DNA from: Eledone cirrhosa | Taxonomy: Eukaryota | Length of the DNA: 64,000 nt | Direction: 5' to 3' | Assembly (NCBI GenBank): GCA_964016885.1 | Contig: OZ024743.1 | Span: forward strand, 19,716,001 to 19,780,000 | Shown here: positions 7,670-49,554 of the stretch, piece by piece | Layout of the letters: each line of letters opens with the position of its first letter | How positions within the stretch are numbered: position 1 is the first letter of the stretch | Program-made: the position numbers and the translations under genes | The notes under the pieces: generated by a model | Told to the model about the DNA's origin: nothing | What the model saw: the letters and a program-made list of their open reading frames with translations, nothing else | The model's database searches: none

Positions 7670-8460
7670 CGTTTCTGAATTTGTTTAGCAAGATTCTTTA
7701 TCTGAAATCGTGTGTTGAAACCGATATTGTTATACTTTGGGAGGGTCATGTTGCCAATAAGAAACACACGCACCAGTTGCTTTCACTTCAATTTATTATT
7801 ATAATAAATTTATAATAAATTTATAAATTTATAAATTTCTGGTTGGTTGGTTGGTTCCACAACCAGATAGTTGTTTATATATTGTCATAGTTCTTTTGTC
7901 ACACACTCTGTGACCTCTTCAGTAACTGGGGATTCCTTTCTTTGTTTCTGTGCCTTTCCTTTGTTCTGTCCTACGCCATTTTGTTTCTGTGTGTGTGTTG
8001 TGTGCTCAGTCTGCGCATGCGCCACATCCGGGTGTCTGTGTGTGTTTATGTTCATTTATTTATTTGTTTATTTACATGTTACTGGTTGGTTGTTTGTTCT
8101 ATGTGTGTGTGTGTTTTCATTTTGTCCTTAATTGTAAGTTGTGATGTTGCTGTTCCACTCATATTTTCTATTTAATTTTGGTTGTAATTCTTTTATGTTT
8201 ATTGACTCTGTAATTTGTCTAAGACCCCTTAACCCTGATAATGTACTCCCGCTACGTTGATGATATAAACATCGTAGTTAAGACACCCCCACTAGAGAAC
8301 AGTCAGGAACTAGAGAAAAACACAATGGAAAGCATCCAGCAAATAGCTAACTCCATCCACCAGAGCATTAGAGTTACTATAGACTACCCAAGTAAACACC
8401 CCAACCATCGATTACCTGTACTAGACACAGAGCTCTGGTTAGATACCATTAATAACAAAA

Positions 8461-9640: not shown

Positions 9641-9683
9641 GTCACTGAAGAGGTCACAGAGTGTGTGACGAAAGAACTATGAC
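9641..9683 (+). ncRNA. Minimal type I hammerhead motif in the family H pLTR
   Basis: gtca-CTGAAGA-g gtcaca gagtg tgtgac-GAAA gaac TA-tgac. Homologues at 7884-7926 (-), 45755-45797 (-) and 48496-48538 (+). Confidence 0.75.
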
Positions 9684-34867: not shown

Positions 34868-35468
34868 TATATGTGCATATATGTATTATATTATGTTATA
34901 TCATATAATAAAAGGGTGGGTGTATATATATATATATATATATATATAAATATATATCACGATACATTAACGGAGCCATAGACTCTCGCCGTTCTCTGTA
35001 AATAATGTGCTCAAAGGAGAGAAAATCCTGAGCACTTTAAAATACAATATGTTGAAAGGGTAACACACTAGAGAGAGATACAGTGCGCTATCAAAAAAAC
35101 AGGGAAAAATCACTGATGTATGGAATCTATAAACTATGAAAGGCATAATATAGACACGATAATTAAAAATATAATTTAAAGCGTAAATAAATACCTCTAT
35201 AACTATATAACACACGTACAAATCCAAAGTGATCTGTTACGCCAGTAAGTTGTTGACAGAAATGAAATAACCCAGGTTCATCAGCGTGTGTAAGGCCATA
35301 CATTTCAGACAACACTAAGAGAATTTTTAAGCGACCGTCCAACTACACGTGGGAGAGAGAAGTCACAGCGTGTTTAAGGGCAGTGATATATATATATATA
35401 TATATATATATAAATGTAAGTATGTATGTATACGTACATACATATATGTATACAGACGTACAGTAGCA

Positions 35469-35535
<67 letters not shown>

Positions 35536-35684
35536 GTACACATACATATATGTACGTATCAGTTTAGCGGACGCTTATTATAACGCCCGCTTTGTCCGTT
35601 TGTAAACAAACTGACAGCCTGAATTTATGCCGTACGGTGTTAAGGTAACCACGTCACCTTTTTGTTCAACACTGACACGGGAAC

Positions 35685-35723
35685 GATGTACTAGTTTCAA
35701 GCTTGTTTGCTATCATCAGCACC
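35685..35723 (-). ncRNA. Minimal type I hammerhead
   Basis: Reverse complement: ggtg-CTGATGA-t agc aaacaa gct t-GAAAC ta GTA-catc. Confidence 0.8.
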
Positions 35724-35960
35724 GTATACCCTTCTGCCAGATGGTTGAACGTTCGAAAGTATATACTTTCCTTATGAAAATTAACGGCTGAGCAGCCTAA
35801 TTTGCATATCGAGTGAGTTCAGTCGGCCAGGCGCACCGAAAACGATAAGTTGTAATAAAAGAAAACGAAATTTGATTCCTCACTCTTAGTACGGCACTTA
35901 CTTAAATGTAAGTATGTATGTATACGTACATACATATATGTATACAGACGTACAGTAGCA

Positions 35961-36030
<70 letters not shown>

Positions 36031-36182
36031 CAGGTACACATACATATATGTACGTAGCAGTTTAGCGGACGCTTATTATAACGTCCGCTTTGTCCGTTTG
36101 TAAACAAACTGACAGCCTGAATTTATGCCGTACGGTGTTAAGGCAACCACGTCACCTTTTTGTTCAACACTGACACAGGAAT

Positions 36183-36221
36183 GATGTACTAGTTTCAAGC
36201 TTGTTTGCTATCATCAGCACC
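36183..36221 (-). ncRNA. Minimal type I hammerhead
   Basis: Identical to 35685-35723, 498 bp away. Confidence 0.8.
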
Positions 36222-36444
36222 GTATACCCTCCTGCCAGATGGTTGAACGTTCGAAAGTATATACTTTCCTTATGAAAATTAACGGCTGAGCAGCCTAATT
36301 TGCATATCGAGTGAGTTCAGTCGGCCAGGCGCACCGAAAACGATAAGTTGTAATAAAATGAAAACGAAATTTCATTTCTCACTCTTAGTACGGCACTTAC
36401 TTAAATGTAAGTATGTATGTATACGTACATACATACTTACATTT

Positions 36445-38797
36445 AGCAAATATATACTAGACAGAATTATATACTAGACAGAATTATCCCCCAAGTTAAG
36501 GTTAAAGTAGAAATTAAACTATGGGGTAACACTCGTGAAGCAATAAGATGGTTTAATAACGTTACTGATAAGAAAAAATCTAAATTTATTCAGTTTGATA
36601 TTGATGAATATTATTCCTCAATTTCACCTGATACTCTACATGAAGCTCTTTCGTTCGCTAAGGCTAATTCCGACCTTACGGATGCTGAAATTAAAATTAT
36701 TATGGAAGCGAGGAAAACTATAGTTAAATTCGATGATAGCTACTGGGTTCGCAAAGATAGACCTTCTAATTTTGATATTACTATGGGTTCTAATGATTCA
36801 GCGGAAGTAACAGATCTTGTGGGAATTTATATCACCCACAGACCACAAGGAAAATTCAAGGATCTCCACGGTGGAATCTACCGGGATGATGCGCTCCTAT
36901 TAGTTAAGCATATGAATAACCAGAATTTAGAAAGGATGCGTAAAAATATCAGAAAGCTTTTTAAGGAACTGGGATTAAATATTACATTTGAATATAACCT
37001 CAAAGAGGTCAATTCCCTTGATGTTACTTTGAATCTCAATACAGATACGATTAAACCGTTCCATAAACTAAATGAGAACCTTAAATATGTATATACGAGT
37101 TCTAACCATCCACTCTCTATAATTAAATCCATCCCTAGAAATGTTTCTCTTAGAATCTCCCGCCTGTCGTCCAACCAACAAACCTTCAAAGAACATGCCG
37201 AATATTATGATGATGCACTTAGGAAAGCCGGACACCTAGATAATATAGAGTATATAGTCGAAGATCACCAAAACACCCAAAATAAATCCCATAGGAGTAG
37301 AAATAGCACAGAATCACCACCATACATACACTACCGCAATAGACACAATAATAGTCGCACACCACCAAACAGAAGGCGATGTAAAGAGTATATTTGGTAC
37401 AACCCGGTCTATAACAACTCTATTAAAACCAATCTACCCTCACAATTCTTTCGATTAGTTAAAAAAACACTTTCCAACATCACATAAATATAATAAAATC
37501 TTAAACCCTAACACTATTCGACTTTCATATTCAACCGCCCCTAATATTGAACAACATATAAAAAAGCTTAACGCAAAATGATTGTATAAACGCCTTCCAA
37601 CACATAACAATATACGTAAAACATTAGCTATAACATCACAAAACAACAAACAACATCCTGTCCTACCTAAGCAACCTCATCAACCCATCCATGACAATAC
37701 AACAACGCAAAATTATAATTGCAACTGTGTCCAACCAGGAATGTGTCCGTTGAACAATCAGTGTCTTGAACGCAACATCGTATACAAATGTACTATCGAG
37801 TCGGATAGACAGAAGTGGTAATATGTGGGATCTAGAGCTACCTCCTTCAAATCACGCCTTTATAGACATCGTTACTCGATAAACATGAAAACCAGCGTTA
37901 TGTAACAACACTCGCAGACAGGGCTTGGCAGCTGCGTGAAAATAACCAACAATTTCACCTAAAATGGGATATAATAGCGTCTGCCCCCCCATAACCCCAC
38001 GAACAGGAATTTTGTAAATTATGTAATGTGGAATTATTTTGTATTATGAAATCCAAAAACATTTTATTGAATAACAGAATAGAACGATCGTTATACTGTA
38101 ACCATCGCTTAAAATCTACATTTTCATATTATAAATACTACCAGGATTGAACGCTTGTCTCTATCTCCGTTTGATTGTCAAAATAGATATTAACATTCTC
38201 TATTAGTCTTAATTCTATCAACTCTTCTATTATTTACCATTTAATATAAACTGCTATAGATAAAATGAGATTTCTGATTTCTTAATTCAATTCCCTAATG
38301 CATATACCAGCTGGCTACTAGCATTGATGTTATTCAGTAGCAATCGAAATCTCCCCCTTCCCCAATTGACACTTTATAATTAATACTACTACACCAAATG
38401 ACCAGCCCTGTCCACTGTCCAATTGGTCAAGTAGAGATTAAAATTGGCACTCCCAAAAATTCTTATTTAGATAAAATGAACCATTTACTCGTGGTATTCT
38501 CATTAGAAACCCTTTATATACTTGTTTAGCAGTAAATTGAATTACCATCTGTCATATACTATCCCCTCTCTTCTTCCTCTATTACTAATATAAATACTTC
38601 AATTTTTCTGATTTTATCCAATTTATCCAAAATCTCTGAAGAAGTGACAACTGATTATACATTTGCTATCGAATACTTGCTAACATTATATGATTACGCA
38701 AGCAGCGATACATAGGTATTCCGTCTGTTACAGAAACATATGTCAATACCTAATAAATTCCTTTTTAAAAAAAGCACTTTCATTTTATATTCATCTT

Positions 38798-44939: not shown

Positions 44940-45480
<541 letters not shown>

Positions 45481-45599: not shown

Positions 45600-48500
45600 T
45601 GCTTTGGGAGGGTCATGTTGCAAATAGGAAACACACGCACCAGTTGTTTTCACTCAAATTTATTATAAATTAAATTTATCAATTTCCTGTTGGTTGGTTG
45701 GTTGGTTGGTTGGTTGGTTGGTTGGTTCCATAACCGGACGGTTGTTCATATATTGTCAAAGTTCTTTCTTCACACATTATATGACCTCTTCAGTGACTGG
45801 GGATTCTTTTCTTTGTTTTGTGCCTCTCCTTTGTTCTGTCCTACGCCATCTTGTTTGTGTGTGTGTTGTGTGCTTAGTTTACGCATGTGTTACATCCGGG
45901 TGTCTGTGTGTGTTTTTATTTGTTTATTTATTTGTTTATTTACATGTTACTGGTTGGTTGTTTGTTCTATGTGAGAGTGTTTTCATTTTGTCCTTAATTG
46001 TAAGTTGTGATGTTGCCATTCCATTCATGTTTTCTATTTAATTTTGGTTGGAGTTCATTTATGTTTATTGCCTCTGTGATTTGTATAAACATTTCGTCTT
46101 TTCTGTGTGTAGATTATATTTTTATTTCTATGTTCTCTAATTTGCCCTTATGTTCTATTTTCCCATGTTGGTGGAGTATTGATGATTCTTTTTTTTATCT
46201 TGAAGTTCTCGCCAGTGTTCATTTAACCGTTCTCCTATACTACGAGCTGTCTCGCCTATGTACATTATATTCTTATCTTTACATTGTCCTTCGGTACATC
46301 TAATGCTATATACTACATTTCTTGTTTTACAGTTAATATGGGGGCTTAGTTTACAGATTATGCATTTATTATCTATACAGGGACGTCTTTGAAAGGGGTA
46401 TGTATTGCTAATAAGTGTTTTTATGGAGGTACCTGGTGTTTCTACTATCTTAATATTAAGTTTTTGTTTATCTAGGGCCCTTCTAAATTTCTAAGCTAAT
46501 TCACCTCTAGGGGTTGTATTGATGAACATTACACTCTGGTATTTATTGCTATCATACCATGAGTTTATTCTATTAACCTTATTCCTAGTTCTTTCTATTA
46601 TATTCCAAAATGTACTCCTATACAAGGGGCAGGTCCCATTTGTATCATTATTTACCATTTTATCCCATTTGGTTCTGGCTCCTCTATATACTCTGATTTT
46701 ATCTCTCTGATTGTAACCAGACAACTGCATACGGTGGATGAAGTGTTGTATGTGTCGCTCTAGTTCTTTGGGGCTGCACATGCGGGACATTTTCTCATCA
46801 CCCGTAACAAATCCACAATCAGTATGTTGATTTTGGTGTGATCCGAAACAGCTGCGTTTCCGTGGATCAGATATTTGGAAATCATGGGTTTGGCATAATG
46901 GGAATGGAGGATTTATTTTTTTGTTATTAATGGTTTCTAACCAGAGCTCTGTGTCTAGTACAGGTAATCGATGGTTTCGTGTGTTTGGTTGGGTAGTCTA
47001 TAGTTAATCTAATGCTCTGGTGGATGGAGTTAGCCGAAAACCACGATGAACTAAAGAAAATGATTGCACATGCGCTGGGGACCAGTATATAACTAACCCT
47101 TAAGGAACATATGTTCAAATTTAATGAAAAAACATATGCCCAAGAGAGGGTGCAGTCATTGGTGTTAGCATTGCAGATGACATAGCTATTCATGGTATGG
47201 TGGGACAATAAACATAAACTTAAACTTAAAGAACAATTAGAAGACAGCAACTCTTAACCCTGATAATATACTCCCGCTAGAGTATTAGAGTTACTATAGA
47301 CTACCCAAGCAAACACCCCAACCATCGATTACCTGTACTAGACACAGAGATCTGGTTAGAAACCATTAATAACAAAAACAAATCCTCCATTCTCATTATG
47401 CCAAAGCCATGACTTCCAAATATCTGATCCACGGAAACTCAGCTGTTTCGGATCACACCAAATTCAACATACTGATTTACGGATTTGGTACGGGTGATGA
47501 GAAATGTGTCCCGCATGTGCAACCCCGAAGAACTAGAGAGACACATACAACACTTCATCCACCGTATGCGGTTCTCTGGTTACAATCAGAGAGATAAAAT
47601 CAGAGTATATAGAGGAGCCAGAACCAAATGGGATAAAATGGTAAATAATAATACAAATGGGACCTGCTCCTTGTATAGGAGTAAATTTTGGAATATAACA
47701 GAAAGAACTAGGAATAAGGTTAATAGAATAAACTCATGGTATGATAGCAATAAATACCAGAGTGTAATGTTCATCAATACAACCCCTAGAGGTGAATTAG
47801 CTTAGAAATTTAGAAGGGCCCTAGATAAACATAAACTTAATATTAAGATAGTAGAAACACCAGGTACCTCCATAAAAACACTTATTAGCAATACATACCC
47901 TTTTCAAAGACGTCCCTGTATAGATAATAAATGCATAATCTGTACTAAGCCCCCATATTAACTGTAAAAGTAGAAATGTAGTATATAGCATAAGATGTAC
48001 TGAAGGACAATGTAAAGATAAGGATATAGTGTACATATGTGAGACAGCTCGTAGTATAGGAGAACGGTTAAATGAACACTGGCGAGAACCTCAAGATAAA
48101 AACGAATCATCAATACTCCACCAACATGGGAAAATAGAACATAAGGGCAAATTAGAGAATATAGAAATAAAAATAGAATCCACACACAGAAAAGACGCAA
48201 TGTTTAGACAAATCACAGAGGCAATAAACATAAATGAACTCCAACCAAAATTAAATAGAAAACATGAATGGAATGCCATCATCACAACTTACAATTAAGG
48301 ACAAAATGAAAACACATACACACATAGAACAAACAAACAACAGTAACATGTAAATAAACAAATAAATAAACAAATAAAAACACACACAGACACCCGGATG
48401 TAACACATGCGCAAACTAAGGACACAACACACACTAAAACAAGATGCCGTAGGACAGAACAAAGGAGAGGCACAAAACAAAAAAAAGGATGCCCAGTCAC

Positions 48501-48645
48501 TGAAGAGGTCACAGAATGTGTGACGAAAGAACTTCGACAATATATGAACAACCGTCCAGTTATGGAACCAACCAACCAACCTGGAATTTATAAGTTCTTT
48601 AATTTATAAATTTAATTTATAATAAATTTCAGTGAAACCAACTGG
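45600..48645. mobile_element. Family H PLE as a ~3 kb inverted pair
   Basis: A - strand copy at 45600-47032 and a + strand copy at 47033-48645 (RT GAVIGVSIADD..FMVWWD through GIY-YIG and pLTR). ORFs match 8461-9183. Confidence 0.93.
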
Positions 48646-48777
48646 TTTTCCGTTTATTGTTTTCGGTGCACCCGGCCGATTAACCCACTCGATATGCAAA
48701 TTGGGCTACTCAGCCGTTAATATGCATAAGGAAAGTATATACTTTCAGACGTTCAATCATCTGGCAGGAAGGTATAC

Positions 48778-48816
48778 GTTGCTGACGATAGCTAATAAGC
48801 TTGAAACTAGTACAGC
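48778..48816 (+). ncRNA. Minimal type I hammerhead
   Basis: gttg-CTGACGA-t agc taataa gct t-GAAAC ta GTA-cagc. Confidence 0.8.
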
Positions 48817-49205
48817 CTTCCTTTGTCAGTGTTGAACAAACGAGCAACGATGGTTGCTAGACACTACGGCTTAATACGGGATGTTTGTTTACAAACACAC
48901 CGAGCATTATAATAAATGTTCGGTGAATCCATACGTACATATATATATGTGTGCATGTATGTATATATATATACATACTACTGTACGTCTGTATACATAT
49001 ATGTATGTACTTATACATACTTATATTTAAGTAACAGCCGTACTAAGAGTGGGAAATGAAATTTCGTTTCATTTTTTCCGTTTATCTTTTTCGGTGCACC
49101 CGGCCGATTAACCCACTCGATATGCAAATTGGGCTACTCAGCCGTTAATATGCATAAGGAAAGTATATACTTTCAGACGTTCAATCATCTGGCAGGAAGG
49201 TATAC

Positions 49206-49244
49206 GTTGCTGACGATAGCTAATAAGCTTGAAACTAGTACAGC
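49206..49244 (+). ncRNA. Minimal type I hammerhead
   Basis: Identical to 48778-48816. Confidence 0.8.
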
Positions 49245-49554
49245 TTTCCTTTGTCAGTGTTGAACAAACGAGCAACGATGGTTGCTAGACACTACGGCTT
49301 AATACGGGATGTTTGTTTACAAACACACCGAGCATTATAATAAATGTTCGGTGAATCCATACGTGCATATATATATATGTTTGCATGGATGTATATATAT
49401 ATACATACTTCTGTACGTCTGTATACATATATGTATGTGCGTATACATACTTATATATATATATATGGTCAATTACTAACACTAGTGCTAAGCGACGCTA
49501 GCTATAACCCGAAAAGAAGAAAAGATCAACATCATCGGTAACTACTCAGCCGCA

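Follow-up and report, generated by a model that had tools for sequence, protein, structure and literature searches.

In this study, we analyzed a 64,000-nucleotide stretch of the Eledone cirrhosa genome (GenBank assembly GCA_964016885.1, contig OZ024743.1, positions 19,716,001 to 19,780,000 of the forward strand, or C4:19716001-19780000 in our search of the 3.0 Gb genome; hereafter the window), and found that positions 48646-49459 probably represent an insertion of a metazoan non-LTR (long terminal repeat) retrozyme, a non-coding, dispersed element that is likely mobilized into (TA)n tracts by enzymes of Penelope-like elements (PLEs). This insertion, which we call array B, belongs to subfamily B of a repeat family whose tandem units each carry a type I hammerhead ribozyme (HHR) motif. 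The label 'retrozyme-like', proposed in an original prediction made from the letters alone, was correct.

The window contains two arrays of the repeat (coordinates are given in Table 1). For array B, repeat alignment and pattern matching agreed on the period and on the two hammerhead positions that had been predicted. The pattern CTGAYGA-N(8-30)-GAAACTAGTA matched four times in the window and not once in 100 shuffles, and the type I core (C3 U4 G5 A6 N7 G8 A9 ... G12 A13 A14 ... A15.1/U16.1, H17) was present in all four motifs. The copies within array B, 428 bp apart from start to start, were 99% identical over a 300-nt block (48646-48945 versus 49074-49373) and 93% identical over an AT-rich block of 91 nt. 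When the non-microsatellite part was compared, unit-to-unit differences were found at 2 of 279 positions in array B and 5 of 279 in array A, and 49-50 differences over 265 aligned positions (18.5-18.9%) separated the units of array A from those of array B. The 5' start of array B was truncated inside the 'tail' segment described below, and both arrays ended at a fixed 3' position, site 1 (...CATACTTATAT in array B; ...CTTACATTTA at 35411 in array A). Arrays A and B thus arose by separate insertion, each from its own lineage of a single abundant, non-coding repeat. Between the hammerheads of array A (GGUG ... CUGAUGA ... ACUAGU-A ... CAUC) and array B, stem I changes from ggtg/catc to gttg/cagc and position N7 from U to C, and the core and the ACUAGU palindrome are unchanged; all of this had been predicted and can be read directly from the sequence. 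A change in loop II had also been claimed, which was partly genuine: the loop is AAGA or AACA in A and AAUA in B and C, but part of the difference is private to array A of the window, where a T-to-A change opens the fourth stem II pair (AGCA; AGCT in the family).

Genome searches yielded 631 candidate places with a B query, 1975 with an A query and 1985 with a query from a third subfamily, C, which was recognized through a copy of intermediate sequence. The best 40 scored matches for the A and B queries were 95-100% identical and spread over all large contigs. As the subfamily sample was taken from the best 40 scored per query, old copies are under-represented in it. The 149 units obtained from 90 loci clustered into A (42), B (48) and C (52), with 7 outside. 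Mean pairwise distances were 2.0%, 5.5% and 4.5% within A, B and C, respectively, and 19.7% (A-B), 11.9% (A-C) and 13.5% (B-C) between them. When the genome was searched for the 31-nt HHR, written with Y for N7 and N within loop II, 24,587 perfect matches were obtained, a number that rose to 32,436 when one mismatch was allowed; a reversed-pattern control gave none. Unit lengths in the family were 420-498 bp, including an internal (TA)n tract, GC content was 35-38%, and the longest stop-free stretch in trimers was 67-92 amino acids. Units near-identical to window positions 48646-48935 were also observed in four public runs (X1, X4, X5 and X6) labelled as four organisms (organisms A-D); in run X1, 8084 contigs matched, with a summed depth of 1-2 million that is not readable as expression or copy number.

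Differences among the three lineages appeared to avoid the constrained part of the hammerhead. Fixed differences were obtained by comparing the majority base of A, B and C in one alignment. None of them fell in the 26 constrained HHR positions (12 core, 10 stem II and 4 inner helix III), whereas the flanks had them at 13 of 115 (5') and 29 of 111 (3') positions; at the overall rate, the probability of 0/26 is 0.005. Within the HHR, differences were found at two of five free positions (N7 and one loop II base) and at two of eight proximal stem I positions. The latter are both partners of one pair (121/157), and each subfamily, represented by 14 sequences, has its own form of this pair: A-U in C, G.U in A, U.G in B. 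Within families, non-CpG substitutions amounted to 38/3592 (1.06%) in the core and stems II and III, versus 640/30616 (2.09%) elsewhere. Genome-wide, 7,849 single-mismatch HHR 31-mers were found per 24,587 exact ones; with 29 specified positions, this corresponds to 0.0110 per site, despite CpG. The best-conserved flank block, a CpG-free stretch of 22 nt invariant in A, B and C, gave 6,061 per 19,267 (0.0143 per site) and was found in approximately 7,000 fewer units than the HHR. A B-derived sub-lineage (L113, L114, L116, G000:C1) lacks 8 nt (ACTTTCAG) of this flank block, in the otherwise invariant hairpin GAAAGU-AUAU-ACUUUC, and its arrays of 5-6 units have intact HHRs. When contigs of the four public runs were examined, 33 of 290 positions varied in at least 10%, and within the 31-mer these were only N7 and loop II. 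Across the copies compared, the HHR core was more conserved than the flanking unit sequence. The intact HHR across diverged lineages likely reflects selection for cutting. To judge from these comparisons of sequence, the A/B differences would be substitutions fixed in active lineages under RNA-structure selection, and those within subfamilies mostly post-insertion decay.

Proximal stem I has four pairs, with 99.4% of cells paired, and continues into a long distal helix, in which 96-98% of cells were paired and only one-sided changes were observed. The strongest covariation in the unit was found not in the HHR but in a separate hairpin with a conserved loop (UAUAAUAA). Its stem reads CCGAGCAU/AUGUUCGG in subfamilies B and C and has been rebuilt as GCGGGCG/CGUCCGC in subfamily A. 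Four of its pairs, plus one in the neighbouring helix, were changed on both sides, and these double-sided pairs were paired in 98.4% of cells, versus 27-46% when the partners were slid. It appears that the whole RNA, not the ribozyme alone, is under structural constraint, which agrees with expectation from the self-paired RNAs of known retrozymes (PMC7229834).

Helix III consists of A-CUAG-U, one pair capped by a palindromic tetraloop. Because this helix is unable to close within one molecule, cleavage would occur via hammerhead dimers. The minimum free energy (MFE) of a homodimer of the B domain was -37.0 kcal/mol, compared with 2 x -15.7 kcal/mol, and the MFE structure holds an ACUAGU:ACUAGU helix, a distal stem I formed between the two molecules and the two stem II hairpins. 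Dimers have been proposed or described in related systems: a dimeric mode of action is assumed for PLE hammerheads in which helix III is short and palindromic (PMC6765202), and axolotl retrozyme hammerheads showed weak cleavage as monomers and much better cleavage as dimers (PMC7229834). Site-specific cleavage after A 48812 and A 49240 is the prediction of this model.

Several results weigh against a working hammerhead, and some of them bear on an alternative that we consider unlikely, namely a relic hammerhead. In that case the unit would still spread, but its motif would have lost cleavage activity and be conserved owing to the youth of the family or to another constraint, possibly RNA folding for recognition by the reverse transcriptase. 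The pair 10.1-11.1 that closes helix II is missing, as all 42 distinct sequences have an unpaired U at both positions; stem II has only four pairs, and helix III cannot form within one molecule, as mentioned above. Stems II and III were invariant and hence gave no covariation signal. Selection for ribozyme function, as originally predicted, finds limited support in an HHR less changed than its flanks; only one HHR pair covaries. At the inner helix III pair, 11 genomic double mutants included one Watson-Crick pair (CAUG) and one G.U. Other parts of the unit are likewise conserved and structured: its 5' two-thirds are well conserved, and in the 5' part, which approaches the HHR in conservation, fixed differences reach 11%; at this rate the probability of 0/26 for the HHR is only 0.044. 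Fisher's test on the within-family counts (8e-6) is optimistic, since related copies are treated as independent. A scan of the window with Rfam at gathering scores gave no matches; the best Rfam model on a 111-nt stretch was HH9 (RF02275), with 16.7 bits versus a cut-off of 52. At E values up to 10 over 15 kb, no hammerhead match was obtained on the motifs, and the only matches were microsatellite-driven microRNA look-alikes and one unrelated HH9. In addition, RNAalifold on 44 units missed the hammerhead fold and gave an alternative pairing of GCUG with UAGU. Finally, a preprint on Xenopus reports in vitro cleavage for one of nine predicted retrozyme dimers (bioRxiv 10.64898/2026.07.22.740005), so a good motif is no guarantee of activity. 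On the other hand, a relic would not readily account for lineage differences that sit exactly at free positions and at both partners of one stem I pair, nor for an HHR that outlasts the best-conserved flank block. Moreover, an axolotl hammerhead with the identical U.U mismatch cleaves, and is more active in dimeric form (PMC7229834). We also looked genome-wide for a lineage in which the helix III palindrome had changed in a compensating way, and found none.

The insertion anatomy of the family was examined by chaining BLAST matches into 118 elements (90 loci), ranging from 63 to 4283 bp. For 26 of 33 A and 34 of 44 B elements, the 3' end coincided with that of the rotated unit; in subfamily C, 33 of 41 elements ended no more than 10 nt away from it. 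The 5' starts were spread over the unit, indicating variable 5' truncation. Two 3' sites were in use: site 1, at ...CTTACATTTA, and site 2, located 56-58 nt beyond, at ...ACAACTTAT in A. Tail scores were bimodal, with 52 elements assigned to site 1, 47 to site 2 and 19 unclassified. In most elements (88 of 99), a TA repeat of at least (TA)4 lay no farther than 30 nt from the 3' end, compared with 366 of 5000 control windows. Among the 118 elements, 27 head-to-head arm pairs were identified. All 17 pairs with both outer ends classifiable combined one arm ending at site 1 with another ending at site 2 (a tail of 56-58 nt), the chance of which is approximately 7e-6 given the 52:47 usage. In 20 of 26 pairs, the distance between the two arms was smaller than their distance from other copies (3.7% versus 5.1%; p = 1.4e-4). 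We tentatively suggest, as a possibility short of an even chance, that a head-to-head insertion is a single event, in which both 3' ends of a cut (TA)n prime on one small circular or multimeric retrozyme RNA. Priming would take place at the two fixed sites 56-58 nt apart, the polymerase would make more than one turn of the template, after which the two cDNAs would be joined in the middle of the insertion.

With regard to the template, we found no clean signature of 5' run-off ends at the cleavage site, which would be a sign of cleavage in vivo: none of the 77 A and B elements started within 5 nt of it. Starts of B elements were even, and 24 of 41 C elements started at rotated positions 159-246 (the HHR and rod-helix region) without a sharp peak, a crowding possibly caused by a reverse transcriptase that stalls on structured RNA, or by joining at a favoured position. 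Since arrays cross the cleavage site and 5' ends are not piled up there, the template would not be a cleaved linear monomer; we infer a circle or an uncleaved multimer, both of which fit. One six-unit array was homogeneous (0.4%). The L113 array (G000:C1:19314600-19317300, minus strand) contained five HHRs with periods of 420, 422, 420 and 422 in A-B-A-B alternation; its distances were 3.65% at lag 1 and 0.48% at lag 2, representing a dimeric higher-order repeat. This pattern is consistent with a dimeric circle read repeatedly, and duplicated dimers would give the same pattern. Higher-order repeats are not a general feature, as they were found in only one of four arrays with at least five motifs, two further arrays being neither homogeneous nor alternating. 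The original prediction had described near-identical units within arrays, each array being copied from one repeatedly read template. The near-identity held for the two arrays of the window but was only modest genome-wide, where the within- versus between-array distance was 1.5 versus 2.05% in A, 3.4 versus 5.6% in B and 3.55 versus 4.5% in C. Such modest closeness is compatible with units that were identical at birth and then decayed, and is no proof of the template model: several results are consistent with a repeatedly read template (arrays anchored at the 3' end that extend over several units, the homogeneous six-unit array and the A-B-A-B array), but the within- and between-array distances do not discriminate.

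Taken together, the retrozyme reading envisages that the unit array is transcribed and that its RNA would cleave itself after the two A residues mentioned above through hammerhead dimers and be ligated into a circle. The template for reinsertion would be longer than one unit, either circular or multimeric. The 3' ends of a cut TA repeat would prime reverse transcription, and a PLE reverse transcriptase and endonuclease likely copy the RNA back into (TA)n tracts.

Retrozymes have been proposed to be PLE derivatives (bioRxiv 10.64898/2026.07.22.740005), and the enzymes of PLEs are well represented in this genome: 10,595 GIY-YIG (PLE) candidates were found, all 150 that were scored exceeded the Pfam cut-off, and several of the domains lay within frames of 500-1096 amino acids. 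A point against mobilization by PLEs is that BLAST detected no similarity between the unit and 22 PLE loci (12 + 10; more than 10,000 candidates exist), 10 of which have open frames of 502-1096 amino acids. The PLE family beside array B was considered as a partner and rejected. Its 3' motif occurred in four independent places among the 90 retrozyme loci; four places in approximately 300 kb (some overlapping) are no denser than in the window, so no association with this PLE family is shown.

Both 5' truncation and 5' inversions are hallmarks of long interspersed nuclear elements (LINEs). The element could be a SINE-like (short interspersed nuclear element) passenger that depends on a LINE instead of a PLE, with inverted arms produced by LINE-type twin priming, and none of the 22 PLE loci compared had a matching end. 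We consider this quite improbable, because 60 element junctions were without poly(A) or a LINE-like tail and PLE endonuclease genes are very abundant. Moreover, PLEs have been described as forming partial tandems and inverted 5'-truncated copies, with a tail at one end and a (TA)n bias (Craig et al., 2021, PMC8557442). The present family shows all of these integration features, and its multi-unit tandems, one-end tail and (TA)n bias match that description. It is also very improbable that the arrays are pseudo-LTR (pLTR) fragments of an autonomous PLE and not a separate non-autonomous element. PLE pLTRs carry hammerheads with a palindromic helix III and occur as tandems (PMC6765202), and Xenopus retrozymes are described as sister to pLTRs (bioRxiv 10.64898/2026.07.22.740005); however, none of the approximately 118 elements in 90 loci had coding sequence, and the unit was not similar to the 22 PLE loci. 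An ordinary satellite amplified by unequal crossing-over, with an inconsequential hammerhead-like motif, would suit the tandem arrangement and the single A-B-A-B array, but this hardly credible explanation is already contradicted by the insertion anatomy, that is, by thousands of short arrays dispersed on all large contigs, phase-fixed 3' ends, random 5' ends, TA-repeat junctions and 17 of 17 head-to-head pairs that join a tailed and an untailed end.

Table 1. Coordinates of the two retrozyme arrays and their features in the window (position 1 is its first letter)
Feature	Position	Strand	Details
Array B, subfamily B insertion	48646..49459	+	1.9 units of 428 bp
Array A, subfamily A insertion	35411..36435	-	2.1 units, period 498 bp, 97%
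CTGAYGA-N(8-30)-GAAACTAGTA sites, array B	48782-48812, 49210-49240	+	
CTGAYGA-N(8-30)-GAAACTAGTA sites, array A	35689-35719, 36187-36217	-	
HHR 1, array B	48778..48816	+	Pattern plus 4-nt stem I strands
HHR 1 stem I	48778-48781, 48813-48816	+	5' strand GUUG; 3' strand CAGC
HHR 1 core	48782-48788, 48803-48805	+	CUGACGA; GAA
HHR 1 stem II	48789-48802	+	U-AGCU/AGCU-U, loop AAUA
HHR 1 helix III	48806-48811	+	ACUAGU palindrome; predicted cleavage after A 48812
HHR 2, array B	49206..49244	+	39 nt identical to HHR 1; predicted cleavage after A 49240
HHR motifs, array A	35685-35723, 36183-36221	-	
Extended helix prolonging stem I	48751..48837	+	
Extended helix pairs, outer	48751-48757 with 48831-48837		GUUCAAU/GUUGAAC
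Extended helix pairs, inner	48761-48770 with 48818-48829		CUGGCAGGAA/UUCC..UGUCAG; 5' bulge GGUAUAC at 48771-48777
Non-HHR hairpin	48899..48924	+	ACCGAGCAU-UAUAAUAA-AUGUUCGGU; second copy at 49327-49352
(TA)n target remnant adjoining 3' end of array B	49460..49467		
(TA)n tract adjoining 3' end of array A	35386..35410		
Inverted 20-nt copy of the bases that close the unit, at the 5' end of array A	36428..36447	+	

The flanks of the two arrays showed some further features. At the 5' end of array A, the inverted 20-nt copy and the array form a perfect palindromic, hairpin-like junction, as read from the sequence, and beside it lies a 17-bp direct duplication of flanking DNA (36451-36487, 2.2 copies, 100%). 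Array B begins 65 nt past the right arm (ending at 48581) of an inverted repeat whose arms (45712-46789 and 47507-48581) are approximately 1.07 kb long and 94-97% complementary, with 717 nt between them. The inverted repeat holds a degenerate GIY-YIG domain (46158-46490, minus strand), 2 kb from array B, and minimal hammerhead-like motifs, CUGAAGAG-GUCACA..UGUGAC-GAAAG, near its two outer ends (45764-45793, minus strand; 48500-48529, plus strand). The arrangement resembles two 5'-truncated PLE copies placed head to head. A second pair of minimal hammerhead-like motifs was observed at 7893-7922 (minus strand) and 9645-9674 (plus strand). A weak Rfam HH9 match at 45162-45231 (plus strand; 25.6 bits, E 0.011), with a GAAAC-AUGU palindrome and a degenerate CUGANGA box, probably represents a hammerhead, now decayed, from a different PLE family. 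Elsewhere in the genome, other hammerhead types were found near long PLE frames: a canonical form with G10.1-C11.1 (CUGAUGAGUCCCAC...GUGUGGACGAAAC; L109 and L110), and a form in which a 3-bp stem II again has U.U at its base (CUGAUGAUUUCUAAAGAAUGAAAC; L103, L108 and L112).

The value of this family is that it is large, young and well resolved, comprising no fewer than 24,587 intact ribozyme motifs in a minimum of three lineages, so that ribozyme selection is readable from lineage differences. Its insertion scars bear on what mobilizes animal retrozymes, and from which template. The published proposal of mobilization by PLEs rests mainly on co-occurrence and pLTR similarity; insertion anatomy adds evidence at the level of mechanism, and opens the PLE model to testing in a genome where many insertions are recent. 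The strict pairing of tailed and untailed arms might be the most useful part for specialists. If head-to-head insertions were indeed single events, the scars would directly read out Penelope-type integration and a rolling-circle RNA template.

Finally, we compared the family with known systems. Newt satellite 2 and other amphibian hammerhead satellites consist of approximately 330-bp tandem units that are transcribed into self-cleaving RNAs active only as dimers. Newt satellite 2, which is likened here by description, likewise has tandem hammerhead units, but it belongs to a different animal and forms long satellites, in contrast with the short dispersed arrays observed here. Rfam Hammerhead_HH9 (RF02275) could be aligned in register using cmscan, including distal stem I, the UAC bulge, proximal stem I, CUGANGA, stem II, GAAAC and the cleavage site; unlike HH9, the present motif has no helix III loop and is mismatched at 10.1/11.1. 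Partial tandems, an adjacent inverted 5'-truncated copy, a one-end tail and a (TA)n bias are shared with PLEs (PMC8557442), and type I hammerheads with a short palindromic helix III, thought to be dimeric, with PLE pLTRs (Weinberg et al., 2019, PMC6765202). The family differs from PLEs in having no reverse transcriptase or GIY-YIG open reading frame, in a tail of 56-58 nt rather than the 30-40 bp described for PLEs (PMC8557442), and in lacking detectable sequence similarity to the 22 copies examined. In the literature searched, no description of two fixed 3' sites, a TA target and paired arms was found for retrozymes.

The closest resemblance in kind is to the metazoan non-LTR retrozymes described by Cervera and de la Pena (2020, PMC7229834), with short, non-coding, low-GC tandem units that each carry a type I HHR, dispersed in thousands of copies, co-existing with PLEs and without an LTR, primer-binding site or polypurine tract. 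The RNA is also highly self-paired in both cases, here by prediction. Units of 420-500 nt with an internal (TA)n exceed the approximately 170-400 nt given in that paper, but fall inside the 51-972 bp range of the 2026 preprint (bioRxiv 10.64898/2026.07.22.740005). The axolotl hammerhead HHR_Amex1 likewise has a helix III of one pair with a palindromic tetraloop, and HHR_Amex2 has the U.U mismatch at the base of helix II (PMC7229834); unlike either of them as described, the present ribozyme combines both weak features. Retrozymes and their hammerheads are already known, and the present family adds to the metazoan non-LTR retrozymes.

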